Assembly (NCBI GenBank): GCA_964365915.1
Contig: CAYIRJ010000004.1
Coordinates: forward strand, 1 to 47,359
DNA from: Candidatus Woesearchaeota archaeon
GTDB lineage: Archaea > Nanobdellota > Nanobdellia > SCGC-AAA011-G17 > DATDVL01
DNA: 47,359 nucleotides
Reading direction: 5' to 3'
The translations under genes were made by a program, and so were the position numbers. A model generated the notes under the pieces. That model did no database searches. It saw nothing but the letters and a program-made list of their open reading frames with translations, and had not been told where the DNA came from. This document shows positions 685 through 38,754 of this stretch, in pieces (the stretch's first letter is position 1; every line of letters starts with the position of its first letter).

Positions 685-927
685 ATGGCTGAAGACACCT
701 TCGACATCCGCGAACACACCCTTGTGCCAAAACACGAGCGATTGAGTGAGGAGGCTGCGCAGCAGCTCTTGCAGAGTTATCACATTGAAAGAAAGCATCT
801 GCCAAAGATTTCTGTTAAGGATCCCTCTATCAAACATCTTGAACCCAAAGAAGGAGACATCATTAAAATCACAAGAATAAGCCCGACTGCGGGGAAAATA
901 TTTTTTTATCGTGCGGTGATGGAATGA
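685..927 (+). CDS. rpoH: DNA-directed RNA polymerase subunit H (Rpo5)
   Basis: 80 aa. HTLVPKHERLSEEAAQQLLQSY..LPKISVKDP..GDIIKITRISPTAGKIFFYRAV matches the RpoH/Rpb5 C-terminal pattern. ATGA overlap with rpoB''. Confidence 0.93.
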   Translation: MAEDTFDIREHTLVPKHERLSEEAAQQLLQSYHIERKHLPKISVKDPSIKHLEPKEGDIIKITRISPTAGKIFFYRAVME

Positions 928-4201: not shown

Positions 4202-6811
4202 ATGGCAGAGGACTACGTTTACAAATATGTGGACCAGATCCAGTTTGGACTGTTAAGCCCGGAAGAGATCCAGAAAATGAGTGCAGTAAAAGTTGTGACG
4301 CCTGAGCTGTATGACAATGAAGGATACCCTGTGGATGGAGGATTGATGGATATTCGCCTGGGGGTGATTGATCCTGGCTTACGATGCAAGACTTGTGGAG
4401 GGAAACTCAAGGAATGCATGGGGCACTTTGGCTATATTGACTTGGCACGGCCTGTTATTCATATCAAGTACATCAAGATGCTTCTGGATTGCTTGCGGTC
4501 TTCCTGCAGAGAGTGTGGGAAATTATTGCTGCAAGATAAGGACATGGAGAAATGGGGTCATCGCTTAACAAAATCACAGGCAGAAGGGGGAGAAGATGCA
4601 CGCAGGGATGTGGTGAGTTCAGTCATTACTAGTGTGAAGAATATCAGAAAATGTCCGCACTGTAAGGCGAAACAATATAGTATCAAGATCGAGAAACCCA
4701 GCACCTTTATGGAAAATGACAGAAGATTGACTCCTATTGAGATCAGGACAAGGCTAGAACGCATTCCTGATGATGCACTAGTGTATCTGGGATTACAATC
4801 GAAATCTGCACGCCCTGAATGGGCAGTGATGAGTATTTTGAATATTCCTCCCGTAACCATGCGGCCGAGTATTACTTTGGAAACAGGAGAACGGAGCGAG
4901 GATGATTTGACGCACAAGTTGGGAGATGTGGTCAGGATCAACCAGCGGTTATTTGAGAACATCAATGCAGGCGCTCCTGAAATCATTGTGGAGGACTTGT
5001 GGGACTTACTGCAGTACCATGTGACAACCTACTTGGATAATACCATCAGCCAGGTTCCTCCTGCACGGCACAGAAGCGGACAGGCATTGAAAACCTTAAC
5101 CGAGCGCATCAAGAGCAAGGAAGGAAGATTCCGCCATAATCTCGCAGGGAAGCGCGTTAACTATGCTGCACGCACAGTCATCAGTCCTGATCCGAAAATC
5201 AAGTTCAATGAAGTGGGCATCCCCCAGCGGGTAGCAATGGAACTGACGGTTCCTGAGCGAGTGAATGTCTGGAATATTGCATTGCTGAAGGAACTGATTG
5301 AGCGCGGTCCTGAAGTGTATCCGGGAGCGAACTATGTCATTAGACATGACGGCAAGAAAAAACAGATTACTGAAGAAACACGAGAAGTGATTCTTGCGGA
5401 ATTGGGACCGGGCATGATTGTGGAACGGCATCTTGTGGATGGGGACATTGCTTTATTCAACCGGCAACCGAGCTTGCATAGGATGAGCATCATGTGCCAT
5501 CGCATTCGCGTACTTCCGGGAAAAAGTTTTCGGTTGAATCCGAGCGTGTGCAATGCGTTCAATGCAGACTTTGATGGAGATGAGATGAACTTGCACGTTC
5601 CGCAGACTGAGGAAGCGCGTGCAGAAGCAGAAATCCTGATGGAAGTGCAGACCCAGCTCATTACTCCGAAGCATGGCTATAATGTCATGGGATGTGTGGA
5701 AGATGCAGTTACCGGACTCTACTTGCTGACGAAGGGGGAGGGCATGCCATTTTCCAAAGAGGAGGCTGTACAACTGTTTGTTAGCATTGGTATTGAAGAT
5801 CCTAAGATCACCCGACAAAAAGTTAATGGAAAGGAATTGTTCAGCATGCTGCTGCCGAAGGATTTTACCTATGAAGGACTTGCCAAAGGTGTGCCGAAAG
5901 ATGCGGAATTAAAAAGAGGAGATGATGGCTTGGTTATTATTGAAAACGGGCAACTGGTGAGCGGCGTCATTGATGCCAATGCTGTCGGAGAAGAACGCGG
6001 AAAAATGATCATGGAATTTTATCGGCGCTATGGCCCGGTAACCACCATCGAATTTTTAGGGAACATCTTCAGGCTGGGGATTAAGGTCTTGCTGAAGCGC
6101 GGGTTTACGATCAGCATTGACGACATCGACATTACTGAGGAAGTGCAAGAGAAAATTACTACATCACTTAGCCAAGGGGATAAGGACGTGGATGAACTGG
6201 TCAAAGAATACCATGCAGGCAAGATGGAAACGCTGCCAGGAAGAACCCTTGCAGAAACTTTAGAAATCAAAACCTTAGGAGTCCTGAACAAGATCCGCGA
6301 CAAAATCGGACAATATGTTGCACAAAACACGCGTCCAAAAAATTCTGCGGTGATCATGGCAAAATCAGGTGCCAAAGGAAAAATTTTGAACCTTGCCCAG
6401 ATGTCAGGGTGCGTCGGGCAGCAGGCACTGATGGGACACCGCATTACTACGGGATACAAAGGAAGAACTTTGAGCATGTTCAAAAAGCACGATTTGTCTG
6501 CAAATGCGCACGGATTTGTGAAGAGCAGCTTCAAAAGAGGATTAAATCCTTACGAGTTTTTCTTCCATGCCATGACCGGAAGAGATGGATTAATGGATAC
6601 TGCACTGCGCACTCCTAAGTCTGGTTATCTTTATCGAAGGCTGGCAAATGCATTGCAAGACATGAAAGTGGAGTATGACAACAGTATCCGAGATGCCAAC
6701 AAGAACATCGTGCAGTTTGCCTATGGTGAAGACGGACTTGAAGTCAGCAAAACTTGGGGAGGCAATCTCAACATCAAGCGCATTGTGAAGAGTGTCAAAC
6801 ATGAAAGATAA
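4202..6811 (+). CDS. rpoA1: RNA polymerase subunit A'
   Basis: 869 aa. Zn motif CKTCGGKLKECMGHFG and catalytic NADFDGDEMNLHVPQ. Confidence 0.96.
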   Translation: MAEDYVYKYVDQIQFGLLSPEEIQKMSAVKVVTPELYDNEGYPVDGGLMDIRLGVIDPGLRCKTCGGKLKECMGHFGYIDLARPVIHIKYIKMLLDCLRSSCRECGKLLLQDKDMEKWGHRLTKSQAEGGEDARRDVVSSVITSVKNIRKCPHCKAKQYSIKIEKPSTFMENDRRLTPIEIRTRLERIPDDALVYLGLQSKSARPEWAVMSILNIPPVTMRPSITLETGERSEDDLTHKLGDVVRINQRLFENINAGAPEIIVEDLWDLLQYHVTTYLDNTISQVPPARHRSGQALKTLTERIKSKEGRFRHNLAGKRVNYAARTVISPDPKIKFNEVGIPQRVAMELTVPERVNVWNIALLKELIERGPEVYPGANYVIRHDGKKKQITEETREVILAELGPGMIVERHLVDGDIALFNRQPSLHRMSIMCHRIRVLPGKSFRLNPSVCNAFNADFDGDEMNLHVPQTEEARAEAEILMEVQTQLITPKHGYNVMGCVEDAVTGLYLLTKGEGMPFSKEEAVQLFVSIGIEDPKITRQKVNGKELFSMLLPKDFTYEGLAKGVPKDAELKRGDDGLVIIENGQLVSGVIDANAVGEERGKMIMEFYRRYGPVTTIEFLGNIFRLGIKVLLKRGFTISIDDIDITEEVQEKITTSLSQGDKDVDELVKEYHAGKMETLPGRTLAETLEIKTLGVLNKIRDKIGQYVAQNTRPKNSAVIMAKSGAKGKILNLAQMSGCVGQQALMGHRITTGYKGRTLSMFKKHDLSANAHGFVKSSFKRGLNPYEFFFHAMTGRDGLMDTALRTPKSGYLYRRLANALQDMKVEYDNSIRDANKNIVQFAYGEDGLEVSKTWGGNLNIKRIVKSVKHER

Positions 6812-9398
6812 CGCAATTGATTTTGCAGCAGCACTGCCGAAAAAAATTTTGGATGAGTTTGAAGAGCTGGCAGCAGCAGAAAAATTAACGCAGAAACAGA
6901 AACAGGAAGCACTGGCACTGCTGCATGAAGAATATCAGAACAGCAAGATCAGCCCTGGGGAGGCGATTGGGATCATCACTGCAGAGAGCTTTGGCGAACC
7001 AGGGACTCAAATGTCACTATTTTTTAGTAACAAAATAATTGTGAAAATAAACAACAATAAAATATTTACGGTAAAAATTGGACCGTTTGTTGATATGTTA
7101 ATGAAGATGAAAGGATCATTTAAACTCAACGATCATTCAGAAATTCTTCCTTTACATGATTTTGAAATTTATGTTCCTAGTTTAAATCAAGAAGAAAAGA
7201 TAGAATGGAAACGCGTGATTGAATGTAGTAGGCATATCACAAACAAAAAACTTATGAGAATTACTACTGCTTCTGGTAGGTCTGTTACCTGTACTGATAA
7301 TCACTCTTTTGTAAATCGTATTCATAATAAGATTACTCCAATAAAAGGGACAGAATTGCAAATTGGAAATAGAATTCCCGTTATTAATTCATTTGTGAAT
7401 CCCTTACCGATGCAAGAATTATCTATCAAAAACCACATCATCGATAATGAAGGAATAGTTGAAGAAAAAGGCGTACTTTCCAAACCAGGAACTAATGCTA
7501 AATCTATGAATGGAAGTTTACCATTAAATGAATCTACTGGATGGTTTATTGGTGCATATCTTGCAGAAGGCAATGGAGGAAAATACCACGCTTCTCTTTC
7601 CAATGTAAATGATAATTACATCAATAACGGTAAACGCTTCGCTGATTCTCTAGGTATTGAACCTGTCGACAGATTTTATATTGGAGAATATGGTCCAGGT
7701 AGATCATTAACATTACATTCTGGATTTTTAGGTAGTTTCATTATAACTCATTGTGGGCAAGGTTCAGATTTCAAAAAAGTCCCTTACTTTGCTTATTCTG
7801 CATCTGATGCGTTCATCTCTGGATTGCTGAGAGGCTACTTTGATGGCGATGGGAATTTCCATGTGGATAGAAAGATGATTCGCTGCTCTTCCAATTCCAA
7901 AGAATTAATAGATGGCATTGCCTTGCTGTTGTCACGATTCAGAATATTTTCCTTTAAAGTACAAGATAAGAAAGGGCAGCACTGGCTCTTGATTCCCTAT
8001 AAGTATGCTCCTTTATTCTTGCAGCACATTGGAAGCGATATTGATTACAAACGTGCTAGCCTCGAAACTTTAGCAGAAAAAGCCAAACGCTTCTGGAATT
8101 CGAGAAGCCAAGATTATACAGACATGATTTCAGGATTTGGAGAACTTTTCAGGAATACTGCAAAGAAGGTTGGCTATCCTACGCGTTACGTCAATAACTT
8201 TACGAACCGCCAAAAAATTGGAAGAACTGCCCTCTTCCGATACATGAAACTCTTTGAACATCTTGCCAAGGAAAAAAACATAGACATTAAGGATGAGCTT
8301 GCTATCATGCAGCGCATGTCTTCCTCTGATGTGGTGTGGGATGAGATTGTAAAGATTGAATATGTCGATAATGACAAGCCTGTTTATGACCTCAGCGTGC
8401 CAGGATTAGAAACATTCACGACAGCAGATGGCATTATCACCCATAACACTTTGAATGTTTTTCACTTTGCAGGCGTCGCGGAAGTGGCAGTGACCCAAGG
8501 ATTGCCCAGGCTTATTGAACTGTTTGATGCCAGAAAAGAAATCAAGACTCCTTTAATGGAAATTTATCTGGACAAGGATATTGCCAAGGATCCTGAAAAA
8601 GTGAGGAAGATGGCTGCACAAATCAGGGAAACCCGTGTCGAGGAAGTGGTCAGTGATTTTTCCATTGATGTTGCACGGCTGCAGATTGCATTGGTGCTGG
8701 ACAAACAGAAGATGAGAAACCTTTCCATTACCAACAATCAGCTAATGAAAGCACTGGAACAGGACATTAAAACTGCCTCGATCAAGGATGAAGGAGATAG
8801 CATTGTACTGAAAACTAAGGTAAAGGAAAATGAGCTGATGGAAACGTACAAGCTGAAGGAAAAAACAAAAACAGTGTTTGTCCGGGGAGTTGCGGGCATC
8901 ACCCAAGTATTGCCAGTGAAGGCAGGCAACGAGTTCATTATCCTTGCAGCAGGGTCGAATCTGAAGGAAGTGTTCGCACTGAAAGGAGTGGATGCTGCAC
9001 GTACGACTACGAACGACATCTTTGAAGTGCAAAAAGTGCTGGGTATTGAGGCAGCACGGCAGACCATCATTAACGAGGCGAAAAAAGTGATTGAGGACCA
9101 AGGACTGGAAGTGGATGTCCGTCATATTTTGTTTATTGCAGATGCCATGACTGCAACAGGAGTAGTAAAAGGGATTACTCGATCAGGCATTACTGGAGAG
9201 AAGGAAAGCGTGCTTGCCCGGGCCAGCTTTGAAACCCCTATTGAACACTTGGTGGATGCCTCGCTGGTGGGAGAAGTAGACTATTTGAATTCCGTCATTG
9301 AAAATGTGATGCTGAACCAGATTGTTCCTTTGGGAACAGGATTGCCTGACCTCAGGGCAGTGACCCAAACTGAGGACAAGGAAAAGAAGGAAGCATGA
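6792..9398 (+). CDS. rpoA2: RNA polymerase subunit A'' interrupted by an intein (390-aa extein plus 478-aa intein)
   Basis: The conserved A'' string GEPGTQM|TLNVFHFAGVAE is split by 478 aa. The ORF-track start at 6792 is GTG. ATG at 6801 is the alternative start. The gene overlaps the rpoA' stop (6809-6811). Confidence 0.93.
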   Translation: MSNMKDNAIDFAAALPKKILDEFEELAAAEKLTQKQKQEALALLHEEYQNSKISPGEAIGIITAESFGEPGTQMSLFFSNKIIVKINNNKIFTVKIGPFVDMLMKMKGSFKLNDHSEILPLHDFEIYVPSLNQEEKIEWKRVIECSRHITNKKLMRITTASGRSVTCTDNHSFVNRIHNKITPIKGTELQIGNRIPVINSFVNPLPMQELSIKNHIIDNEGIVEEKGVLSKPGTNAKSMNGSLPLNESTGWFIGAYLAEGNGGKYHASLSNVNDNYINNGKRFADSLGIEPVDRFYIGEYGPGRSLTLHSGFLGSFIITHCGQGSDFKKVPYFAYSASDAFISGLLRGYFDGDGNFHVDRKMIRCSSNSKELIDGIALLLSRFRIFSFKVQDKKGQHWLLIPYKYAPLFLQHIGSDIDYKRASLETLAEKAKRFWNSRSQDYTDMISGFGELFRNTAKKVGYPTRYVNNFTNRQKIGRTALFRYMKLFEHLAKEKNIDIKDELAIMQRMSSSDVVWDEIVKIEYVDNDKPVYDLSVPGLETFTTADGIITHNTLNVFHFAGVAEVAVTQGLPRLIELFDARKEIKTPLMEIYLDKDIAKDPEKVRKMAAQIRETRVEEVVSDFSIDVARLQIALVLDKQKMRNLSITNNQLMKALEQDIKTASIKDEGDSIVLKTKVKENELMETYKLKEKTKTVFVRGVAGITQVLPVKAGNEFIILAAGSNLKEVFALKGVDAARTTTNDIFEVQKVLGIEAARQTIINEAKKVIEDQGLEVDVRHILFIADAMTATGVVKGITRSGITGEKESVLARASFETPIEHLVDASLVGEVDYLNSVIENVMLNQIVPLGTGLPDLRAVTQTEDKEKKEA
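7014..8447 (+). mobile_element. Intein with LAGLIDADG homing endonuclease, in frame in rpoA''
   Basis: Starts at Ser (TCA 7014) right after GEPGTQM. Ends ..VYDLSVPGLETFTTADGIITHN (AAC 8445-8447), followed by Thr+1. Block B is TCTDNHSF. Two LAGLIDADG motifs: GWFIGAYLAEGNG and LLRGYFDGDGNF. The 5' part is very AT-rich (10/60 G+C at 7021-7080, against 30/60 at 6961-7020). Confidence 0.9.
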
Positions 9399-9652: not shown

Positions 9653-10060
9653 ATGCAGTATGACCTCCAGTTGATTGGCTATCTCAATACTTTTGAATCC
9701 CTAACCCGATCGAAAGTGAAGGATGTGTTCTTTGATGCTACGGAGACCTTGGTGTTTGTGATGCAGCCAGGAGAGATGGGAAAAGCCATTGGCAAGAAAG
9801 GCAGCAATGTGAAACGCTTAGGAAACTTGCTGAAGAAGCGCATTCGCGTTATTGAATTTTCTTCTTCTGCCATTGATTTTGTTAAAAATTGCACGCTGCC
9901 CTTGATTCCGAAAAAGATGGTGCAGGAAGTGGATACTATCACTATCACCATGGAAAATACGCAACAGAAGGCTATGCTGCTGGGAAGGAACAAAAGCAAT
10001 TTCTTGAATATGCAGAAGATAGTGCAGAGATATTATCCGGTGCAGCTGAAAGTGTTATAG
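9653..10060 (+). CDS. nusA: archaeal NusA-like transcription termination/antitermination protein (KH domains)
   Basis: 135 aa. KH signature GKAIGKKGSNVKRL. In the canonical position after rpl30e. Confidence 0.85.
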   Translation: MQYDLQLIGYLNTFESLTRSKVKDVFFDATETLVFVMQPGEMGKAIGKKGSNVKRLGNLLKKRIRVIEFSSSAIDFVKNCTLPLIPKKMVQEVDTITITMENTQQKAMLLGRNKSNFLNMQKIVQRYYPVQLKVL

Positions 10061-11266
10061 AAATATATCATCCTCAGCATCGTAGTCCATTCCTAAGGCC
10101 TTTGTGAATTTTACTTGGTTTTCCTTGATCTGCAGTTTTTGCAGTGCCTTGTTCCTTATTTGTCGAATTCTTTCTCGTGTCACGTTTCCCTCGATTGTAC
10201 CTACTTCTTCCAATGTTCTTTTTTCTCCTGTAAGATACAATAATCTTATTATTCTTTTTTCTCTTTCTTTTAAAGAAGTTTTATCAAGTGCTTGAATAAT
10301 CATTTCTTTATCATAGACTAAAATATTTTCCCTTATCCTTTCTTGGTAATCATGGCAATCTCTTTTTTCCAAATAATCAACTATTTCTTGATCTTGTTGA
10401 TTGTGCTGAATATTTTCTTTTGCTGGAGTTAAGTCCTGCTTAGCTCTGTCATCTAATGTCAACGTTCGATGAAGATTCTGATCTTTGGGTTCTTGGTAAA
10501 GAGTGTTTATTTCTAGATTTACAGGATTCAAAGCCTTGCATATTAATTCAGTTTTTTTATCCGCAATTTCTTCTCCTCTTATTACCTTTTCTGCCCTTAG
10601 GAATAAAAAAGAATCTAGATGCACTGCTGCATAGGAATAGTTATGATAATTTTCACTCATTACACCAAAAAAGGCAGCTCTATACACTGCTGTGTATCCT
10701 GGATGTTTTTCTGCTTTTCTCACGAAATTAATAATAGATATAGAAGCCCGCTGTATGAGATCTTCCAATGGTGGTGATTCTAAATTCCTTGATTTTCTAT
10801 AGCGAATAAATGATTTTCCTGCCTGCGTGGCTGTATGCAGAAAATACGTCTCCATAAATCGTTGCATCTCTTGTTCAGAATATCCTGCTTCTTTCAACGC
10901 TGGAGCAATATGCCCTCGATAATGATGTACAAATGTTGCATGGTATCTTTGATTTACTTCTTCTTGCGTGGCAGATGGGTGCTGCTGTAAAAATTTGAGA
11001 AAGTTCCTTTTTCTTTCATCCCAGACTTTCTCTGACAATTGCCCTTTTCCCCTATTCCAAGCTGATTTTGAAATGCCTACATCTTTTTTTGCATTGTTAA
11101 TTCTCAACCGGTAGAACTTTTTGAGAATGGATTCTAGTCCTGCTTTCCTTACATCCCTTATGCTCGCTCCTTGATGACTTGCTAAATAGTCATAAAATTC
11201 TGTTAATCCTCTTTCCCAATATGCGTAATCCTTCTGTACCTGTTTTTGCTCTGATATAGTAGTCAT
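10055..11266 (-). CDS. sigma-70 family-like protein (region 2-like and region 4 HTH)
   Basis: 403 aa. The C-terminus LKEREKRIIRLLYLTGEKRTLEEVGTIEGNVTRERIRQIRNKALQKLQ is the classic sigma-70 region 4.1/4.2 signature. LEDLIQRASISIINFVRKAEKHPGYTAVYRAAF resembles region 2.1-2.3. The gene is AT-rich (15/60 G+C at 10201-10260). Confidence 0.8.
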   Translation of the reverse strand: MTTISEQKQVQKDYAYWERGLTEFYDYLASHQGASIRDVRKAGLESILKKFYRLRINNAKKDVGISKSAWNRGKGQLSEKVWDERKRNFLKFLQQHPSATQEEVNQRYHATFVHHYRGHIAPALKEAGYSEQEMQRFMETYFLHTATQAGKSFIRYRKSRNLESPPLEDLIQRASISIINFVRKAEKHPGYTAVYRAAFFGVMSENYHNYSYAAVHLDSFLFLRAEKVIRGEEIADKKTELICKALNPVNLEINTLYQEPKDQNLHRTLTLDDRAKQDLTPAKENIQHNQQDQEIVDYLEKRDCHDYQERIRENILVYDKEMIIQALDKTSLKEREKRIIRLLYLTGEKRTLEEVGTIEGNVTRERIRQIRNKALQKLQIKENQVKFTKALGMDYDAEDDIFL

Positions 11267-28059: not shown

Positions 28060-28974
28060 ATGCAGCGCAAGGTTGCCAAGATTGGGCCAAGCACGTTGAT
28101 GGTCAGCCTGCCCACGCAATGGGTAAAAAAGCACGGCATCAACAAAGGAGATGTGGTGAATGTGCTGGAGGATGGCGATAAATTAACCATCAATCTCGGA
28201 ACGCATACCCCTACAGAAAAGAGCGCAACACTTTCTGTCGAAGGACTTGATGTCATGCTGAGCAGGGCTATTGCTGGATATTATAAAAAAGGCTACTCTG
28301 AAATCAAGATTGTTTGCGATTCCCACAAAAAGCTTGCTGATGTCTATCAAGCATTAAATGTGCACTGGACAGGCATGGAAATTGTGGAACAAGGAGCTTC
28401 TCACATTTTGCTCCGTCAGGTTAGCGAGGTTACTAAGGAAAGTTTTCCTGCCATGCTTAACCGCGCCTTCCTTTTTTTGATTGCGACGAGTGATGCGTCC
28501 TGCCATGCGCTTACGTCTGGGAATAAAGAATCCTTACGGATGGTGGTTGCACGCGATCCTACACAAAATAAGTACTGTGATTTCTGCAGGAGAGTGCTGA
28601 ACAAAGAATCGATCACCGGAGCACCCATGATTTACTACATTGTGGAACAGCTTGAGCGGATGGGGGATTTGTATCGCGATCTTTGCAAGCATTTTCTGGA
28701 ACATCCCGCGAAGCTGAAAAAACATACTGCACTCTTCCAAGAGGCGCATGCATTGCTGCAACAGTTCTATACTCTTTATTACCGGTTTACTCTGGAACGC
28801 TATGAAACTCTGGGAACTTCCTTTAAAACATTGCAGAAGAGGATTGAAGATGCTCTTTCCCCTGCGGATAAACAAGATGTTTTCTTTCTGATGTATCTGC
28901 ACCAGATTGCAGAAGCCATTTTTGATATCAATGGTGCTGCACTGGTTCTTAACCTAGAAACACGGAAGGATTGA
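28060..28974 (+). CDS. AbrB/SpoVT-domain plus PhoU-domain regulator
   Basis: MQRKVAKIGPSTLMVSLPTQWVKKHGINKGDVVNV is an AbrB swapped hairpin. The later IVEQLERMGDLYRDLCKH is PhoU-like. The ORF-track start at 28003 lies upstream of the TATA box. Confidence 0.75.
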   Translation: MQRKVAKIGPSTLMVSLPTQWVKKHGINKGDVVNVLEDGDKLTINLGTHTPTEKSATLSVEGLDVMLSRAIAGYYKKGYSEIKIVCDSHKKLADVYQALNVHWTGMEIVEQGASHILLRQVSEVTKESFPAMLNRAFLFLIATSDASCHALTSGNKESLRMVVARDPTQNKYCDFCRRVLNKESITGAPMIYYIVEQLERMGDLYRDLCKHFLEHPAKLKKHTALFQEAHALLQQFYTLYYRFTLERYETLGTSFKTLQKRIEDALSPADKQDVFFLMYLHQIAEAIFDINGAALVLNLETRKD

Positions 28975-30595
28975 TACTTTCTTCAAATGATTTATTTAAT
29001 TCTGGATATGTTTCAGCAATTGCACGCTTGGTTCCTACATAGATACGCTCTATTCTTTCTTTATCTTCAGGCTTGCGGCGCTCTGACAGTGCAGCAAGCT
29101 GACACAACGAGTTTTGAATGGTAATATTCTTCCACGTATCTATCCAAAGCTGATAATCGCGAGCAGGAAAATATTTTTTCCATTCGTTCCATGCATGCTG
29201 CAAGAGTTCATTACGCTGACCTGGACGGGCAGCCATGAATGCAGCAATGTCGTGCAAAGAATCGGAACGTCCACCGGTCTCCCAGTCAATGACATATCCC
29301 CCTTCCAAAACGTTTGATTCTGCAGCATCACGATGCGCAAGCACTTCAATCCCTAACAGATTACGAAGCTTCGCAAGATTTTCCAATTTTCTTTCGTACT
29401 GGTCCAAAAATTCCTGCTGCCTTGAATGCTGCAACCTTCTCCTGCACCTTCTCTTAAATTCATCTTGATAATCATGCACCGGCTCATCAGGAAAATGCTC
29501 TTGGTACGGGCCTGTTCCTGCTGCCATCAACTTGATGAGATGGGTAATGCCTTGCTTGAAATCATTTAAGTTATTTTCTGCACATTGGTTCAAAGTTTTT
29601 TTGTTTACTCGACGCGTTACAAGAATATACTCCTCCCCATATGGAAAACTGCTCAACGGATCTTCGCATGGCACCTGTTCAATATTCAGTACACCATAGC
29701 GTTGTATATATGCATCTCGCTGCAAACTGGCTATTGCTTCCTCTCGCTTCAATGCTTTTGGATCAATACTACGCTTGAAGAAATAACTATCTTTAGTGAA
29801 AAGATTCTCTTTGCATTCTAACAATACATGTGTCTTGCGGGATTGTGTAACTTTAGCTAATCGTGCAGGATTCTCTAAGATCTTTTCCAATGAAGAACGA
29901 AAATGCTGCTGTGCACGTTTGTATTCTCCCAGAGAACGACAAAAAATTCCTGCCAATAATTCAAGATTTACCGTGTTCTCAGGATATTTCTTAGGAAGCG
30001 ACTCGACTATTCGATGTGCAAGGTAATACCAACCCGATCTTTGATACATATCAAACCGCATAATATCCTTTCTTAATGTCCCACGGAAAGGAAATCCCAA
30101 CCATCCCAACAACGGCAGCATATATTCTGCAAATGTTTTAATATTATCATATTTTTTTTGGTTTTGGATCTTTTGTGCAGTATACAAAAAATATTGATCA
30201 TATCTCTGATTGAGGAACGCTTCCTTTGCACATAGGTCCAAATAAATAGTTGGATTATTTGTTTGTTCTTTTATTGTATCGATTTTTTCAAGGATTTTCT
30301 TTTTTTTCCCAAAAACAGTTTTCGCAAGAGGGAGTATTCCCGTTTTTGGTTCTGCACTTGTTAAGAAGCAAGATGTCATGAACGTCCCACCAAAAAAGCC
30401 CAAAAAAAACAAACGAAGATGATCTTCAATAGGTAGATCTATGTCTGATAACCAATATCGTATTCCTCCATAGATAACTGCGCCCCCTCCTATGGAAAGA
30501 CCATTCATTTCTTTTACCCATTTTTGATGCTTTCGTAATCTCTCCTCAAGCGTTTGTTCCTGATACATCAACTTTTTCTCGTTTTTGAAATTCAA
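28949..30595 (-). CDS. membrane-anchored protein with a C-terminal APH/choline-kinase-like phosphotransferase domain
   Basis: 548 aa. N-terminal hydrophobic helices (GLSIGGGAVIYGGIRYWL, FFLGFFGGTFMTSCFL) and C-terminal LAHRDAAESNVLEGGYVIDWETGG (HxDxxxxN, IDWE). Confidence 0.6.
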   Translation of the reverse strand: MNFKNEKKLMYQEQTLEERLRKHQKWVKEMNGLSIGGGAVIYGGIRYWLSDIDLPIEDHLRLFFLGFFGGTFMTSCFLTSAEPKTGILPLAKTVFGKKKKILEKIDTIKEQTNNPTIYLDLCAKEAFLNQRYDQYFLYTAQKIQNQKKYDNIKTFAEYMLPLLGWLGFPFRGTLRKDIMRFDMYQRSGWYYLAHRIVESLPKKYPENTVNLELLAGIFCRSLGEYKRAQQHFRSSLEKILENPARLAKVTQSRKTHVLLECKENLFTKDSYFFKRSIDPKALKREEAIASLQRDAYIQRYGVLNIEQVPCEDPLSSFPYGEEYILVTRRVNKKTLNQCAENNLNDFKQGITHLIKLMAAGTGPYQEHFPDEPVHDYQDEFKRRCRRRLQHSRQQEFLDQYERKLENLAKLRNLLGIEVLAHRDAAESNVLEGGYVIDWETGGRSDSLHDIAAFMAARPGQRNELLQHAWNEWKKYFPARDYQLWIDTWKNITIQNSLCQLAALSERRKPEDKERIERIYVGTKRAIAETYPELNKSFEESINPSVFLG

Positions 30596-30612
30596 AAATT
30601 TTTCGCCAAAAA

Positions 30613-30625
30613 GCTTATATAAACC
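30613..30625. promoter_or_regulatory. single palindromic TATA element (GCTTATATAAACC) between divergent genes
   Basis: Lies about 24 nt from the minus-strand ATG 30595 and about 26 nt from the plus-strand ATG 30645. Confidence 0.4.
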
Positions 30626-30644
30626 CTTTTTAACTGACTTGATT

Positions 30645-32486
30645 ATGGCGAAGAAAACACCTGACGCACCTTCTTCTCAACCTGATTTGGCTTCCAAGCT
30701 TCCAGAACTGCCTGATGCAGTGAAACAGCGCTTTGAAGAAGTCAAGAAAAAACTAGAAACTTTTAAAGATAAGACCTTAGAAAAATTTGACAAATATATT
30801 CTGGGCATTTCATTATTGCCGCCAGAGAAACAGCCTTTTGAAGGTCCCCCTCCTGCGGCTGCAACACCTCCTCCCGGACCTGAACAGAAAAGTGATGAAC
30901 TGAACATTCTTGTCTTGATAAATGATAGTGACAGTGAGAAAATGAGCAAGTTTGAGCTGCGGGAAAAAATGTTTACTGTTCTTGACAAGATTGCTGCGGA
31001 CATTGACAAAAGCTTCAAGCCTGAAGTGATGCTGCTGACAGAACTGCGCGAAAGTTTGTATGACGCGAAATATGAAATTTTGCGACTTATCGGCATGAGC
31101 GCTCCTATTTACGATCCCAAGGATCTGCTTGCTGCACTCAGGATCAGCGAAGTGCACAAAAGCATGGTCATCAAGAAATTTGAGAAATATGTGGTGAGCT
31201 ATGTTGCTGTGGGAAGCTTGTTTAGAGGAGATGCAAAGAGCAATGACATTGACGTTGCGGTGATCATTGATGATACTGATGTGAAAAAGATGAGCAGGGC
31301 AGAGCTGAGAGACAAGCTTGGAGCAATCATCAGAAGCATGGGATACGAGGCTTCTTCCATTACTGGAGTGAAAAAGAGCTTTCACATTCAAGTATACATC
31401 TTAACTGACTATTGGGAAAGCATCAAGGAAGCGAATCCCGTAATCTTTACGTTCTTGAGAGATGGCGTGCCGCTCTATGACCGAGGGACGTTCATGCCCT
31501 GGAAACTGCTGTTGGAACAGGGAAGAATTCGACCCAGCCCGGAAGCCATTGACTTGTTCATGGACATGGGAAAACGGCTGATTGAGAGGGCAAAAGGAAG
31601 GATGATTGGTATTGTTGCAGAAGATATTTACTATGCAGCCTTGAATCCGAGTCAGGCTGCGTTGATGCTGTATGGCATTCCTCCTCCTACGCCGAAGGAA
31701 ACGGTGAAACTGCTGGAGGATATTTTTGTGAAGAAAGAAAAATTACTGGAAATGAAGTATGTCAACACGCTTGAAAAGATCAGGAAGTGCTACAAGGACA
31801 TTGAGCATGGCACGATCAAGGACATTACGGGAAAAGAAATTGACCAGATGCTGCAGGAGACTGAGGATTATTTGAAGAGGATTGATCATTTGTTCAAGCA
31901 GATTGAGAAGCAGGCTGACAAGAAAGCAGTTGAGGAATTTTACAGCACTTTTGCTAAGGCGGTAAATGATGTTCTTGCTACTGAAAACATTATTGCCAAC
32001 AAAGACTTGGAAAAGGACTTCAAGCTGCTTGTCAAGAAAAACATCATTCCCAAGACCTTTGAAAAAAATCTTGAAGCTGTTGTTGGGCTGAAAAAGAAAA
32101 AATTAACGCGCTTTGAACAGAACAAAGTCATTCGTGAGAATACTTTTTTGATCCGCATCTTGTTTGAACATATCCAACGGAAAAAGGCGCTGGAGCTGGA
32201 ACGGGCAAAGATACGGGTGAAATACGGGGAGAAGTTTGCAGATGTTTACTTATTGGATAAGGTGGCTTATCTGGTGGAGGATGCGGATGGAACGGAAAAA
32301 CGCATCAACAAGGCTCTCTTGACTAAGGAAGGGGGATTAGAAAACATCCAGGAAAGTAACTTAAATGAACTGGAGACGGCATTGACTGCAGTGCCGATTC
32401 CCCAGAAGGTGTTCATCAAGGAAAAGATCTTTGAAGACTTAAGAAAATTGTATGGCGAAGATATTGAGATTGCTGTCGGACGATAA
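30645..32486 (+). CDS. large nucleotidyltransferase (Pol-beta superfamily) protein with a degenerate N-terminal NTase repeat and a helical C-terminal region
   Basis: GSLFRGDAKSNDIDVAVIIDD is the NTase G-S...D-x-D motif. An earlier degenerate copy reads LNILVLINDSDSEKMSKFELREKM. The segment ..LLEQGRIRPSPEAI..YGIPPPTPKE is paralogous to 42354-43166. The likely start is ATG 30645. Confidence 0.65.
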   Translation: MAKKTPDAPSSQPDLASKLPELPDAVKQRFEEVKKKLETFKDKTLEKFDKYILGISLLPPEKQPFEGPPPAAATPPPGPEQKSDELNILVLINDSDSEKMSKFELREKMFTVLDKIAADIDKSFKPEVMLLTELRESLYDAKYEILRLIGMSAPIYDPKDLLAALRISEVHKSMVIKKFEKYVVSYVAVGSLFRGDAKSNDIDVAVIIDDTDVKKMSRAELRDKLGAIIRSMGYEASSITGVKKSFHIQVYILTDYWESIKEANPVIFTFLRDGVPLYDRGTFMPWKLLLEQGRIRPSPEAIDLFMDMGKRLIERAKGRMIGIVAEDIYYAALNPSQAALMLYGIPPPTPKETVKLLEDIFVKKEKLLEMKYVNTLEKIRKCYKDIEHGTIKDITGKEIDQMLQETEDYLKRIDHLFKQIEKQADKKAVEEFYSTFAKAVNDVLATENIIANKDLEKDFKLLVKKNIIPKTFEKNLEAVVGLKKKKLTRFEQNKVIRENTFLIRILFEHIQRKKALELERAKIRVKYGEKFADVYLLDKVAYLVEDADGTEKRINKALLTKEGGLENIQESNLNELETALTAVPIPQKVFIKEKIFEDLRKLYGEDIEIAVGR

Positions 32487-34551: not shown

Positions 34552-34630
34552 AAAGAATTCTGAATTTTTGATTATTTTCTACTCTTATTCTGTTGTCTTT
34601 AAGACCTATATCTTTTTATAGATAATTTTT

Positions 34631-36292
34631 ATGCGCGGGGGTATGTTGATTGCCTGGTTGAATGCTGCAACGCCTGAAACCTTTATTGGAGAGAAAGCAA
34701 GAACCCTTGCTGCATTAGCAACTCATGGGATCAATGTGCCGAAAGGATTTGTCATTACCCAAGAGGCATTTACCCACTTTCTTGCGGCAAACCAGATTGA
34801 CTTGCAGTTTCTTGAAAACTTGAACTTGGAGGATCAGGAACAAGTGGCGCATGCGGCAGCAGAACTCCAGCATCTTTTCCAGCAGGCCTATTTTCCAGAA
34901 ACACTACAGCAGGAAATTCTTTCAGCGTATGACCAGATGCTGGTGAGTGCTGAAGTGTATCATCATGTCAGCGCAGAAGCCTTGAACATTCTGAAGACAG
35001 GAAGAGACCTTCCTAAGGTCCTGATTCGGTCCAGCTGGAAGGAAGGAAAAGCGCTTTTTCATATTAAAGGGAAGGAAGCACTGCTGCAAGCCATCAAGGA
35101 AAGTTGGATGCTCCGCTTTCAGCCTGCACTATTGCAGCACCACATGCATGACATGGAAGTTATTGTACAAAAAATGCTTACTGTAGAACGCTCGGGTGTT
35201 GTTGTCCCTGATCAGCAGACTCACATTGAAGTAGTGTTAGGACTCTATGATGCGGTTACTCAGCAGCTTGTTCAGCCTGATGTGTATGCTCTTGATGAGC
35301 AGGGCACGTTTATTACCAAACAAGTGGTGAAGCAGGAATTCCTCTTCGTACGCGATTCCCAGGGAAGCTTGATCAAAAAGCATTTATTCTACCATGGGGA
35401 AAGCCAGAAACTCAGCGATTATGATGCACGCCAAATAGCAAAGCTCTACCAGAAAATTACGAGCATACTTGGATACATGTCTATTCTTGAATTTGCATTT
35501 GATGGTAATCAATTGTATGTACTGCAGGCTACCCAGCAGAAGCAGGAACCTGTCGTGGAACACGTAATGCAGCAAGCACAACCAGATATGCAAGCACAGG
35601 AACCGGAAACGCTTTCTTCAGAAGATCTGCATACTGTGACTGAACTGAAGGTGTTTCTTGAACAGAAGGACAGCTCTATTCCCTGTGATGGAGTGTTTAC
35701 TACTGCCTCTCTCCAAGATCTTCAAGAGATAGCCAAGGAATACCAACAAAATACGGTGTGGTATGCATTGCGCGATGCGCAGGATCTCCTGGACATTGCT
35801 AAGTTCCATGATGCAGGAGCGAACAATGTGGGGATTGCTATTTGTGGACTCACGGAAATTGAGCAGCTGCGGATGGTGAAGAACTCCCTGAAGAAGGCGG
35901 GGCTGGAACCTTTGGAGGAAATTGAAGTAGGATTAGTTATCGATTCCCCTCTTCTCCTCTATTTGCTTGATGACATTGACAGAGAAGGAATTGATTTCTT
36001 AGTAGTGGATTTTGCAACGCTGGCAGAGCGGAGTGCGGGAAAAGTCACGGACGGAAAAAACAAGGGATACTTGAAGTTACTGCATCATTTAGTGAAGGAA
36101 TGCAAATTGAGAAATATTGAAATTGGGGTTGCGGGGACCTTTGATGACGAACTGATTGACTTCTTTGTGAAGGCAGGATTTGACAGCTTGATATTGCCGA
36201 AGGCACAGCTGGAAAATGTGAAGAAAACAGTTGCGCGTGCGGAAAAAAGGCTGTTATTAAACGCTGCACGAAGAGACTTGAAAGAGATATGA
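34631..36292 (+). CDS. PEP synthase/PPDK-like protein without the phosphohistidine swivel domain
   Basis: 553 aa. The N-terminus GEKARTLAALATHGINVPKGFVITQEAF..VQKMLTVERSGVV is a PPDK_N-type ATP-grasp. The C-terminus ..IEVGLVIDSPLLLYLLDDIDREGIDFLVVDFATLAE is PEP-utilizer TIM-barrel-like. No GGxTSHAAI-type motif is present. Confidence 0.6.
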   Translation: MRGGMLIAWLNAATPETFIGEKARTLAALATHGINVPKGFVITQEAFTHFLAANQIDLQFLENLNLEDQEQVAHAAAELQHLFQQAYFPETLQQEILSAYDQMLVSAEVYHHVSAEALNILKTGRDLPKVLIRSSWKEGKALFHIKGKEALLQAIKESWMLRFQPALLQHHMHDMEVIVQKMLTVERSGVVVPDQQTHIEVVLGLYDAVTQQLVQPDVYALDEQGTFITKQVVKQEFLFVRDSQGSLIKKHLFYHGESQKLSDYDARQIAKLYQKITSILGYMSILEFAFDGNQLYVLQATQQKQEPVVEHVMQQAQPDMQAQEPETLSSEDLHTVTELKVFLEQKDSSIPCDGVFTTASLQDLQEIAKEYQQNTVWYALRDAQDLLDIAKFHDAGANNVGIAICGLTEIEQLRMVKNSLKKAGLEPLEEIEVGLVIDSPLLLYLLDDIDREGIDFLVVDFATLAERSAGKVTDGKNKGYLKLLHHLVKECKLRNIEIGVAGTFDDELIDFFVKAGFDSLILPKAQLENVKKTVARAEKRLLLNAARRDLKEI

Positions 36293-36580
36293 TTACTTCT
36301 TTGAATACTGCTCACTGGGATCGTAGGGAAGAGGATTCTCTGCATACGAGATGATCATTTCTTTCTTTCCCAGATTGTGGTACATCATGAAAAACTGCTC
36401 AAGAGGTGGAGGGGCAGGTAAAGACTTTTCTGGTTTGGGAGGAGCTACAGGCATTTGGCTCATGATCTTTCCTCTTTGATATTGTTCTTGTTTATCTGGT
36501 AATGTTTTTTTGGTCATGCATGCAACAGTTAATGCACTGAGTATGGCAAGCAATGATGAAGTACGTGCAAGCGATCTCAT
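36293..36580 (-). CDS. small putative lipoprotein (95 aa)
   Basis: Signal-like MRSLARTSSLLAILSALTVAC followed by a Pro-rich region. ATGA overlap with the upstream gene. Confidence 0.5.
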   Translation of the reverse strand: MRSLARTSSLLAILSALTVACMTKKTLPDKQEQYQRGKIMSQMPVAPPKPEKSLPAPPPLEQFFMMYHNLGKKEMIISYAENPLPYDPSEQYSKK

Positions 36581-37806
36581 TTTCTTCCTCCGCTTTTATC
36601 TAAGACTTCTGGTAGCATAGGAAGCGCTTCTGGAGTTAATCTCTCAGTTCCATACACCACTTCTCCTGTTATTTCTCCTTCTTTCCTGTTTATCTGGAGG
36701 CGAAGATGAGAACTTTTGAATTTTACTTTCCCGTTACCAATCTTTTCATCAATGTGCTCAGGCCGGACTAATGCATATGCTATCTGTGCATCCTCTGATG
36801 GCAATTTTATTCCGATGACTTCTCCTTCATTGTCTAAATTGAGAAAATCAAACTTCAGCACGGGTATTTCCTTGACGGTTCCTTCTGTGACTGTGATATC
36901 CCCCCAGTAATGTGCAGAAGTTCCCTTTGGGACAAAGAGGCTTGATTGCTTCGGCTGGACTGAGTTTTGACGCATCAATTCTTTCTTTTCTGCATCATAT
37001 TTTTGTTGCAAATCCAGAATGAGGCCATTGGTCCCTTTGATCATTTCCTTTGTGTTTCCCATGTCGTCAATTACTTTTTCTAGATTATTATTGACGGCAC
37101 CTAGGGAAGTCTCTACTCCTTCCACTCTTTCGTTCAATGTCCTTGTCATTCCTGCAGTCTTTTGCATATCTTGTGAGATCCTATTATAGGTTCCATCCTG
37201 TTTTCTTTGCATTCCGCGAAATTGGCGCTGCAATTCTCTTTTCTCTCTGCCTGCTGCATTCTTCACTTCATCCCGATATTGCTGCAATGTTTGCTGCTCT
37301 GCAGCATGCATCTGATCATGCACTTCCCATCCTTTTCTTGTTATGTAATATGCAGTAATACCCATAGCAAGTGCTGCAATGCCAATTCCTATTCCGAGAC
37401 CCCATCCTATTCTTTCTGGTAGTTGCGGTGGAACTTGTGGGACTGGGGCAGGTGGAGCTAGAGTTTGAGGAAGAACATAGATGGGTGGTTGATTTTTTCC
37501 TGCTTGCTTCACTTCTTCTCGTAACTGACCATAATTTTGCTGCGCTTCTGCCCGCAGAGCATCCACCTTTGCATGTAACCTTTCTTGATTCTTGTCTATT
37601 TTATCCATTCCTCTTAATCCTACTGCGGCAGCTTCTCCATATACTACTAATGTTTCTTTAGTGAGGTCATTCTCCTTGCGGTACTGTTCTTCAAATTTGT
37701 TTAGTGTGGTATTTACATTCTTCACATCTGTTGTTAAACCTGCAAGGGAGCATTCTATTCTAAGCCCTTGTTCGAGAATATCAGAGAAACTTCCGTCCGC
37801 AGTCAT
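36577..37806 (-). CDS. bitopic coiled-coil membrane protein (409 aa)
   Basis: Coiled-coil N-terminus, a Pro-rich linker, one TM helix (IGWGLGIGIGIAALAMGITAYYI), a second coiled coil and a beta-rich C-terminal domain. No family recognised. Confidence 0.55.
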   Translation of the reverse strand: MTADGSFSDILEQGLRIECSLAGLTTDVKNVNTTLNKFEEQYRKENDLTKETLVVYGEAAAVGLRGMDKIDKNQERLHAKVDALRAEAQQNYGQLREEVKQAGKNQPPIYVLPQTLAPPAPVPQVPPQLPERIGWGLGIGIGIAALAMGITAYYITRKGWEVHDQMHAAEQQTLQQYRDEVKNAAGREKRELQRQFRGMQRKQDGTYNRISQDMQKTAGMTRTLNERVEGVETSLGAVNNNLEKVIDDMGNTKEMIKGTNGLILDLQQKYDAEKKELMRQNSVQPKQSSLFVPKGTSAHYWGDITVTEGTVKEIPVLKFDFLNLDNEGEVIGIKLPSEDAQIAYALVRPEHIDEKIGNGKVKFKSSHLRLQINRKEGEITGEVVYGTERLTPEALPMLPEVLDKSGGRK

Positions 37807-37808
37807 AC

Positions 37809-38222
37809 TTATTTCCTTGTCCGAATATCAAACTTCTCTTTCCCACAGTCAACTTGTACCCGAGATTCTGGAGATTTTCGTTCTCCCATTGGGCCATATT
37901 GGGGATGGCTGGAAGCAGGTGCTGATGGCAAGGATTGCTGAATCATATGCTGCAATAATTGCTGGTACTGTTGCATGAGCATTTGTATTTGTACATCTCC
38001 CTGAGGCTGATATGTCGGTATAGGGATTATTGTCGAGGCATTTGCTGGCTGGTTCAGGACATAGCTTAGTCCAGATCCTTGAGGAACGCCTTGAAATACG
38101 AAAACTTGTGGTTCAGGTTTTTCACATTTCTTGCTACAATCTATGTTAATTCCTGGTGCAGTGCACGCGGCAAGCGCAATGCCTACTAAAGAACTTTCTG
38201 TTAATGCTTTGAACATCTTCAT
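37809..38222 (-). CDS. putative lipoprotein (137 aa from ATG 38222)
   Basis: MKMFKALTESSLVGIALAAC has a lipobox-like Cys, followed by a Gln/Pro-rich region. ATG 38222 lies 1 nt after the upstream stop (38224-38226). The ORF-track start is 38264. Confidence 0.5.
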   Translation of the reverse strand: MKMFKALTESSLVGIALAACTAPGINIDCSKKCEKPEPQVFVFQGVPQGSGLSYVLNQPANASTIIPIPTYQPQGDVQIQMLMQQYQQLLQHMIQQSLPSAPASSHPQYGPMGERKSPESRVQVDCGKEKFDIRTRK

Positions 38223-38223
38223 T

Positions 38224-38754
38224 TTATTTTCCTCCCCTGCTTTGAGCATACTGTTCCACTTCATTGATCAAACCCACAAGATCGTCTTGCGACTGGACCT
38301 CGATATCATTCCAAAATGCATAAACCCCAGTATCACACGGATCTTTTGACCTTCCGAAATAGAAATGCGGACGGACGGTAGTTTCTCCATCATGATATAC
38401 AACCCATGCACGATCTCCCTCTTTTTCTCCATAGAAATGTTCTCTGACTTTTCCACCTACTATTAGTGCACATCTTTCCGGCGCTGCCTTTGCACGCTCT
38501 TCTAAGTTCTTTTTTTGTGAAGAAGCAGCTTCCTTTGGCTTTTTTTCTGGCTCTTCTATCAACTCGTCTGAATCCTTTGGCATGGAATCTGGGTTTTCAA
38601 CAAGGTACTCTTTGCCATTTTTATCAGTTTTTTCTTCCCTTCTCACTGTTTCTTGTGGTACATAGGCTTTATTGCAGTGAGTAGCAACAAGAATTCCCGC
38701 TAATCCTGCTAAAGTAAGTGTACTGGTGATCGCAGTATATTTTGCTGTATTCAT
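38224..38754 (-). CDS. putative membrane-anchored/secreted protein (176 aa)
   Basis: N-terminal hydrophobic segment ITSTLTLAGLAGILVATHC, then a charged linker and a globular C-terminus. No family recognised. Confidence 0.5.
   Translation of the reverse strand: MNTAKYTAITSTLTLAGLAGILVATHCNKAYVPQETVRREEKTDKNGKEYLVENPDSMPKDSDELIEEPEKKPKEAASSQKKNLEERAKAAPERCALIVGGKVREHFYGEKEGDRAWVVYHDGETTVRPHFYFGRSKDPCDTGVYAFWNDIEVQSQDDLVGLINEVEQYAQSRGGK

Follow-up and report, generated by a model that had tools for sequence, protein, structure and literature searches.

Whether an open reading frame (ORF) that carries the two end domains of a phosphoenolpyruvate (PEP) synthase, but not the phosphohistidine domain between them, can still encode a dikinase is the question raised by P0001, a gene on contig CAYIRJ010000004.1 of a Candidatus Woesearchaeota archaeon (assembly GCA_964365915.1). 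The window analysed here comprises 47,359 nucleotides of this contig (positions 1 to 47,359, forward strand), in which P0001 occupies positions 34631 to 36292. We concluded that P0001 is very probably not a PEP synthase, because a dikinase needs an ATP-grasp site, a phosphoryl-carrying His and a PEP/pyruvate site, and two of these three are gone. With roughly even confidence, we read the protein as a non-dikinase paralogue of the archaeal PEP synthase PpsA, namely a presumably oligomeric, nucleotide-responsive scaffold or regulator of the pseudoenzyme type.

Domain architecture and the missing swivel domain

Pfam mapping assigned an N-terminal PPDK_N domain to P0001 (PF01326, aa 18-308, E 1.4e-29) and a partial PEP-utilizers_C domain (PF02896), which was restricted to aa 412-538, reached only profile positions 156-292 of 293 (the latter half) and was marginal in score (E 3e-5, 23.8 bits against a cut-off of 22.8). 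No match to the swivel family PF00391 was obtained in P0001 even at E<=10. The NCBIfam equivalogs for PEP synthase remained far below their cut-offs (NF005057, 119.4 against 598 bits; TIGR01418, 116.3 against 739.75 bits), a shortfall of about 480-620 bits. Combining these searches with an AlphaFold2 (AF2) model, Foldseek and alignments yielded the following layout, in which all features lie on the + strand:

34631..36292, +: whole ORF of P0001, 553 aa plus stop (ORF call)
34646..35536, +: PPDK_N ATP-grasp domain, aa 6-302 (Pfam and Foldseek)
34949..35014, +: segment SxEALxIxKTGRxxP, aa 107-128, mean family identity 72% (alignments)
35027..35053, +: R133 (Arg of VRSS, RPH Arg117) with the truncated phosphate loop (hhalign, comparison with P0020)
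35537..35629, +: acidic, Gln-rich linker, aa 303-333, at the place of the swivel domain (AF2 and alignments)
35630..36199, +: minimal (beta/alpha)8 PEP-utilizer barrel, aa 334-523 (AF2, Foldseek and alignments)
35990..36028, +: IDFLVVDFATLAE, aa 454-466, counterpart of DxFSIGSNDLTQ / (D)FFSIGTNDLTQ, Asn-Asp metal/PEP motif lost (alignments)
36131..36133, +: Ala501, aligned with the catalytic acid/base Cys (ICGQ to VAG) and shared by all six family members
36200..36289, +: long basic C-terminal helix, aa 524-553, with ARAEKRLLLNAARRDLKEI (AF2 helix 524-552, alignments)

The AF2 model (mean predicted local distance difference test score, pLDDT, 80.7) shows an ATP-grasp domain, a disordered linker, an eight-stranded barrel and a C-terminal helix, although with a predicted template modelling score (pTM) of 0.53 the relative placement of the two domains is not confidently predicted. 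An earlier, sequence-only reading of this locus had proposed that both end domains are retained; this holds for the folds, as supported by AF2 and Foldseek, but not for the active sites.

Alignment of the family profile with canonical PpsA by hhalign (probability 100%, E 1.4e-53) placed residues 308-333 opposite the swivel domain of about 130 residues, including its GGxTSHAAI motif, and a MAFFT alignment with canonical PpsA and five close homologues opened the same gap. A swivel-domain hidden Markov model (HMM), which we built from eight canonical enzymes and which recognises each of the canonical sequences (E 1e-44 to 1e-57), found no match in P0001, in its six-member family or in the six frames of the window, and no invariant His column exists among the six family members. 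The absence of a GGxTSHAAI-type His, as claimed by the sequence-only reading, is thus borne out; a divergent PF00391 domain with a catalytic His at aa 300-380 was looked for and not detected, and with the swivel absent and no His conserved in the family, the canonical shuttling of phosphate is impossible, as had also been proposed. The linker that takes the place of the domain is predicted to be disordered (pLDDT <50 for aa 305-333), has an isoelectric point of 4.05 and shows the lowest mean identity in the protein (27%).

P0001 is about 250 aa shorter than its closest canonical relatives (768-808 aa), a larger deficit than the 200 aa estimated before. It is made up of the swivel domain and its linkers (about 130 aa), three deletions in the barrel (about 95-110 aa) and the phosphate loop of the ATP-grasp domain (about 10 aa).

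Degeneration of the PEP-utilizer barrel

The barrel measures about 190 aa compared to about 310 aa in canonical enzymes, yet all eight strands are predicted by AF2 (338-343, 354-357, 375-380, 400-404, 433-437, 456-460, 497-501 and 519-523). Foldseek retrieved the octahedral PpsA cores as structural matches (8a8e_A, E 2.5e-11, root-mean-square deviation 2.7 A, TMt 0.66; 9dae_A, E 1.5e-9). Comparison with canonical PpsA revealed three internal deletions, affecting the GLxRxEF, FKTNE..NPMxGxRG and DRDS loops, which carry three substrate-binding Arg residues. The canonical residues R(GLxR), R(VxVR), R(GxRG), N-D, R(DR) and Cys are each deleted or substituted. The segment IDFLVVDFATLAE, which had already been recognised as the replacement of (D)FFSIGTNDLTQ, is present at aa 454-466 and contains VVDFATLAE where canonical enzymes have IGSNDLTQ, while Ala501 stands at the position of the acid/base Cys, the residue reported as catalytic in Pyrococcus furiosus PpsA (Cys756; 10.1101/2022.08.11.503304). 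The sole remnant of the canonical set in P0001 is an Asp at the Glu position of MxExP, which reads D/D/D/T/E/E across the six members; in P0004, the acidic residue on beta5 is replaced by Thr. The substitution of catalytic-looking positions had been noted from the letters, but the degeneration exceeds that description, given the deleted barrel loops, the replaced Asn-Asp and Cys residues and the shortened phosphate loop.

Remnants of the nucleotide site in the ATP-grasp domain

The top structural match of the N-terminal domain was the ATP-grasp domain from rifampin phosphotransferase (RPH; 5hv6_A, E 7e-18, TMt 0.79), and the matches also included HpeI (9goj, E 1.2e-16) and PPDK ATP-grasp domains. 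The motif GEKARTLAALATHGINVPKGFVITQEAF quoted in the sequence-only reading is located at aa 20-47. Retained ATP-grasp residues comprise K22 (GGK), R133 (VRSS), Q180/M182 (VQxM) and E287 (DIEW), of which K22, R133 and E287 are the counterparts of RPH Lys22, Arg117 and Glu297. In RPH, the phosphates of ATP are oriented by Lys22, Arg117 and Thr136, with Glu297 serving as a ligand of Mg2+ (PMC4844700). The counterpart of Thr136 is Thr in 4/6 family members and A141 in P0001. Following R133, the sequence SSWKEGK replaces SSATAEDLPxASFAGQQ with a loss of about 10 residues, and the Gln/Arg pair of LQxR (PPDK Q335/R337) is not conserved, reading Q/N/N/Q/T/T and T/R/E/Q/K/K in the six members. The counterpart of E287 is Ala in P0003. 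As the residues equivalent to the phosphate- and Mg2+-binding positions of RPH are mostly kept, nucleotide binding by this domain is plausible, while canonical catalysis is not.

Two candidate interpretations of this region were rejected. Pairwise alignments by HMMER and MAFFT matched KTGRDLP with ATAEDLP, by which the Arg of VRSS would become an Asn; we discarded this pairing and assigned R133 as the VRSS Arg based on hhalign, the strand pattern of the AF2 model and bridging sequences that carry both motifs, such as P0020. The KTGR segment, in turn, was considered as an innovation specific to the family and dismissed on finding that the canonical P0020 and P0061 also carry KTGR/KAGR. Judged by these alignments, the segment characterises the PpsA lineage from which the dead forms arose and did not originate with them.

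The C-terminal helix

In alignments, the C-terminal helix of P0001 falls on the equally C-terminal helix through which P. furiosus PpsA oligomerises (QEERKLMLEAARKQL, 8a8e residues ~790-808), whereby AEKRLLLNAARRDLK of P0001 pairs with EERKLMLEAARKQL of 8a8e. In the 8a8e structure, the C-terminal helices build tetramers of the 24-mer core, and removal of the last 20 residues from the Staphylothermus marinus enzyme abolished oligomerisation (10.1101/2022.08.11.503304).

Conservation and the radiation in DPANN archaea

Five orthologue clusters with the same architecture (534-564 aa, 44-61% identity) were identified, the named ones originating from Nanoarchaeota metagenome-assembled genomes, and a related-locus search added two loci, L008 and L009, in species-representative genomes of Candidatus Nanoarchaeia. 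In total, the uninterrupted architecture occurs on eight independent contigs. A profile search of a 5.8-billion-protein index revealed no new family members. Mean column identity across the six-member family is 66%, and mean conservation is highest in aa 410-523 of the barrel's second half (0.73) and the KTGR segment (0.72), followed by the C-terminal helix (0.67), the N-terminal domain (0.51) and the linker (0.27). Invariant blocks include GLEPLEEIE, KNKGYLKLL, VKECKLRNIE, FDDEL and ARAEKRLLL. By this pattern of conservation, P0001 is an intact gene under selection.

The opposite reading, in which a true PEP synthase gene is decaying into a pseudogene or has been distorted by the assembly, could account for the many deletions and substituted catalytic residues in a lineage of genomes undergoing reduction, but is highly improbable in view of the eight independent contigs, the long invariant blocks (LEPLEEIE, KNKGYLKLL, VKECKLRNIE, AEKRLLL), the confident fold prediction for the domains and the deletions themselves, which are all in frame and located in loops and leave the eight strands intact.

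A phmmer search of 1.84 billion representatives returned 2,707 matches at E<=1e-3, of which the top 161 were classified using our own domain HMMs and hmmalign catalytic columns; counting of motifs by regular expressions was dropped, as it missed cases such as GGRTCHAAI in P0007. The classes are as follows:

Fully canonical: 16 of the top 161
Swivel recognisable, catalytic His replaced (N/S/K/Y/Q/P...): 54, of which about six are mis-scored intein-bearing canonical enzymes
ATP-grasp and full-length barrel, without swivel: 24
ATP-grasp and short barrel, without swivel (the class of P0001): 19
ATP-grasp only: 24
His kept, barrel residues altered: 12
ATP-grasp and swivel, without barrel: 12 (His replaced in 8, kept in 4)

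In the His-replaced class, about six proteins of more than 1100 aa owe their assignment to an intein inserted at the His site; they are canonical and were not counted as dead. In P0020, P0034, P0066, P0072, P0076, P0101 and P0130 (1170-1727 aa), the match to the swivel HMM is split at profile positions ~65-68, which indicates an intein at or adjoining the catalytic His. In some intein-bearing PpsA relatives, the match of the N-terminal domain is also split, near profile position 130.

The survey of homologues thus recovered further swivel-less proteins, and P0001 is not a one-off; it is part of a large radiation of PpsA-like proteins with a dead or deleted swivel domain, whose named members come from Candidatus Woesearchaeota, Nanoarchaeota and Aenigmatarchaeota. 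The six-member subfamily of P0001 (534-564 aa) is the most reduced form seen, combining the swivel deletion with the shortest barrel. A helix motif of the form E[KR]x followed by three hydrophobic residues is present in 14/19 proteins of its class and in 34/54 of the His-replaced class, the latter including about six intein-bearing canonical enzymes. Database names of the degenerate relatives are 'PEP/pyruvate-binding domain-containing protein', 'hypothetical protein' and sometimes 'pyruvate, water dikinase' or K01007; entries for the swivel-less P0025 and P0041, for instance, read 'COG0574 K01007' (Tara) and 'pyruvate, water dikinase' (JGI). Our literature searches found neither a characterised member of this group nor any account, in DPANN archaea or in other organisms, of PpsA paralogues whose swivel is missing or has lost its His.

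A rough neighbour-joining tree grouped the clade of P0001 with P0014/P0029, adjoining a pair formed by P0018, which has no swivel, and P0019, in which the swivel is present and TSH has become DSP. P0019 is the closest relative still possessing a swivel domain, and Pro occupies its catalytic His position. P0019 has thus kept a swivel that no longer carries the His, and its close relative P0018 has none; the tree, which is only indicative, points to an inactivation of the His relay that preceded the deletion of the swivel domain.

Functional interpretation and alternative explanations

P0001 combines the features expected of a pseudoenzyme, in that the predicted fold is kept, residues essential in the canonical enzymes are lost and the sequence is conserved across species. 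In the PpsA-derived scaffold or regulator that we favour, the protein would descend from an archaeal PpsA with the KAGR segment and the C-terminal oligomerisation helix. The swivel domain has been replaced by the disordered linker of about 30 aa, and the barrel pared down to its eight-stranded core without the canonical residues. Via the C-terminal helix, and perhaps also the barrel, the protein may assemble into a tetramer or a larger particle resembling the PpsA core; ATP-grasp modules would extend from it on flexible acidic tethers and might bind nucleotide without productive turnover. A broader version, in which a large and diverse DPANN family of PpsA-derived proteins has abandoned dikinase chemistry, keeps the MAPS-type helix for oligomerisation together with an ATP-grasp domain that binds nucleotide, and forms big homo-oligomeric, non-metabolic particles, with P0001 as the minimal version, is doubtful. 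Candidate roles of such particles would be an energy-charge-sensing scaffold, a chaperone-like hub or a structural particle for the episymbiotic lifestyle.

Several observations weigh against the scaffold reading. In Enzyme I and PPDK, part of the dimer interface is formed by the beta3-alpha3 and beta6-alpha6 loops, both of which are deleted in P0001. For this reason, a 24-mer is far from assured and the higher-order state is uncertain. Leu542, which is invariant in the family, stands at the position of Met799, the Fe(II) ligand of the P. furiosus tetramer. Nucleotide binding is deduced from no more than three or four positions, and P0001 itself has A141 where the Thr for the alpha-phosphate would stand. 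The gene context provides no functional clue, as the L35Ae-L10e neighbourhood described below is part of long-range collinearity. Furthermore, an acidic residue on beta5 is found in 13/14 and a D/N on beta6 in 14/14 sequences of the wider clade, on account of which the barrel may still bind a metal or ligand, and 'non-catalytic' is not proven.

The conserved beta5 acid and beta6 D/N of this 14-sequence clade also feature in the strongest alternative, a neofunctionalised enzyme, which we regard as possible but unlikely. Here, the ATP-grasp domain would still cleave ATP and, bypassing any His relay, pass a phosphoryl or adenylyl group straight to a new substrate bound on the remodelled barrel or between the domains, or the barrel alone would have gained a new metal-dependent activity similar to the small HpcH/HpaI-type barrels of its superfamily. 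The stripped barrel indeed approaches the HpaI/HpcH aldolases in size and fold (Foldseek E ~1e-6, TMt ~0.6), and the strong conservation of aa 410-523 could mean an active site instead of an interface. The retention of K22, R133 and E287 fits such an enzyme as well, and the RPH variants Arg117Ala and Thr136Val keep ATP pyrophosphatase activity (PMC4844700). However, the LQxR Gln/Arg pair varies freely in the family, the E287 counterpart is Ala in P0003 and the beta5 acid is Thr in P0004, and since these candidate catalytic positions differ between close orthologues, they argue against a conserved active site. The disordered linker, across which the relative position of the domains is not confidently predicted (pTM 0.53), likewise speaks against this alternative. 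No member of the PPDK_N family is known to work without the His relay.

Considerably less probable is a split dikinase, in which P0001 would supply the ATP-grasp domain, and perhaps the acceptor domain, to a swivel located on a separate polypeptide, as in HpeHI, CreHI and phenylphosphate synthase. There is precedent, since the stand-alone ATP-grasp protein HpeI works with the swivel-bearing HpeH (PMC12167813), and HpeI is among the structural matches of the N-terminal domain (9goj, E 1.2e-16). The sequence-only reading had named a His-domain partner as its second option and proposed a genome-wide search for a stand-alone swivel domain. We ran this search in six frames on the window and nine related loci (167 kb from ten loci), and the only match was P0019 itself; as the window covers 47 kb of the genome, a distant partner is possible. 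The catalytic His is replaced by Pro in P0019 and by N/S/K/Y/Q in many related DPANN proteins, and these swivel-bearing relatives indicate that the relay was abandoned in the lineage before the domain was deleted. In addition, the swivel and the substrate-binding domain share a subunit in known split systems, and the ATP-grasp domain forms the other by itself (PMC12167813), an arrangement different from that of P0001. Finally, with the PEP/pyruvate-binding residues of the barrel gone, the canonical second half-reaction has no site for phosphate delivered by a partner in trans. Of the two options of the sequence-only reading, the pseudoenzyme or regulator is thus favoured and the partner-dependent enzyme disfavoured.

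Relation to known systems and implications

Among characterised proteins, the multimeric archaeal PpsA (PpsA/MAPS, EC 2.7.9.2; P. furiosus 8a8e, S. marinus 9dae) represents the best match in sequence and structure, with E 5.6e-49 for the family profile against 8a8e. Shared features are the ATP-grasp fold, the barrel topology and the helix motif E-[KR]-[KR]-L-[LM]-L-x-A-A-R-[KR]. In contrast to PpsA, P0001 lacks the swivel and its His, has a barrel shorter by about 100 aa without the Arg, Asn-Asp and Cys residues, carries Leu in place of Met799 and has a short phosphate loop. The other degenerate DPANN PpsA-like proteins share the lineage, the KAGR segment, the C-terminal helix and the dead or missing swivel.

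Two-component dikinases such as HpeHI, CreHI and phenylphosphate synthase resemble P0001 in that a polypeptide holds an incomplete set of the three domains, and the ATP-grasp domain of P0001 resembles HpeI (PMC12167813). In these systems, however, the ATP-grasp subunit stands alone and its partner combines the swivel with the substrate-binding domain and bears the essential His, whereas P0001 joins ATP-grasp to a PEP-type barrel that is degenerate, and no partner was found in the 167 kb from ten loci. RPH shares the fold of the N-terminal domain and the counterparts of Lys22, Arg117 and Glu297, but possesses a rifampin-binding domain and a C-terminal swivel with His825, neither of which occurs in P0001 (71.7 bits with the NCBIfam RPH model against a cut-off of 999). 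Enzyme I of the phosphotransferase system (PTS) and PPDK belong to the same PEP-utilizer barrel superfamily, although both keep the full catalytic set of the barrel; Enzyme I consists of a swivel/HPr-binding N-terminal part and the barrel, without ATP-grasp, an architecture complementary to that of P0001.

Proteins of the P0001 type match PF01326 and PF02896 and are in some cases labelled PEP synthase, so that metabolic reconstructions of DPANN archaea would wrongly infer a gluconeogenic step from them. Domain-based annotation likely over-calls PEP synthase in DPANN genomes, and as a corrective rule we propose to require PF00391 with its catalytic His together with the Arg, Asn-Asp and Cys set of the barrel. 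The radiation also displays a stepwise dismantling of a three-domain swivel enzyme, beginning with substitution of the His (P0019 and many others), followed by deletion of the swivel and then by trimming of the substrate loops of the barrel, with the oligomerisation helix and part of the nucleotide site conserved throughout the series. The retention of the gene by genome-reduced DPANN archaea, in a collinear core region beside translation genes, implies a function. If the scaffold reading holds, P0001 would be one of the rare pseudoenzymes that stem from a dikinase of central carbon metabolism.

Gene start and genomic setting

The true start of P0001 is probably Met5, encoded by the ATG at 34643, because the MHIAWLN start of the homologues aligns with this residue and a TATA-like element lies upstream:

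34614..34622, +: TTTTTATAG, resembling a TATA box, about 25 bp upstream of 34643 and within the spacer of 79 bp that follows L10e (read from the sequence)

This arrangement suggests that the gene may have its own promoter and a leaderless mRNA starting near 34643.

The ribosomal protein genes for L35Ae and L10e are located upstream of the gene in all loci examined, including that of the 29%-identical P0023 on a complete 737-kb Woesearchaeota genome (CP066683.1), and the genes flanking it on either side keep their order over more than 10 kb. The core region of the window also carries genes for RNA polymerase subunits, EF-2 and EF-1alpha. In L002, L003 and L004, other genes are inserted between L35Ae-L10e and the studied gene. 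Based on the collinear genes further out and these occasional insertions, we read the neighbourhood as inherited gene order in a core region and not as a functional operon.

Directly upstream of the genes for the more distant relatives P0023 and P0019, and divergent from them, a PCMT-like methyltransferase (protein-L-isoaspartate O-methyltransferase family) is encoded in L004 (9231..9869, -; locus of P0023) and L006 (9285..9902, -; locus of P0019), while it is absent from that position in the window. Further upstream in the window, two divergent genes with overlapping starts encode a 548-aa protein with a weak APH-type kinase domain (28949..30595, -) and a 633-aa protein with a weak nucleotidyltransferase domain (30585..32486, +); both are found at the same place upstream of L35Ae/L10e in L001 and L002. 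On the other side, four ORFs of 95, 409, 151 and 176 aa (36293..38754, -) run convergent with the studied gene and have no significant Pfam family. Several of them contain Pro/Gln-rich stretches and hydrophobic N-termini and may be secreted or membrane proteins, and opposite-strand runs of Pfam-less ORFs are also present downstream of the gene in L001-L003.

A 403-aa ORF (10055..11266, -) has as its sole Pfam match a Sigma-70 region 4 helix-turn-helix (E 1.3e-10), which is odd for an archaeon, and is presumably a generic helix-turn-helix regulator. RNA polymerase subunit B is encoded in two parts, B'' and B' (924..2405 and 2398..4200, +), whose genes overlap by 8 nt, consistent with the archaeal assignment obtained from L35Ae/L10e and the names of homologues. 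Lastly, an intein interrupts the gene for RNA polymerase subunit A'' (Rpb1 domain 5; 6792..9398, +); it matches Intein_splicing (E 1.3e-18) and includes a homing endonuclease domain of the LAGLIDADG type (LAGLIDADG_3, E 3.5e-11).

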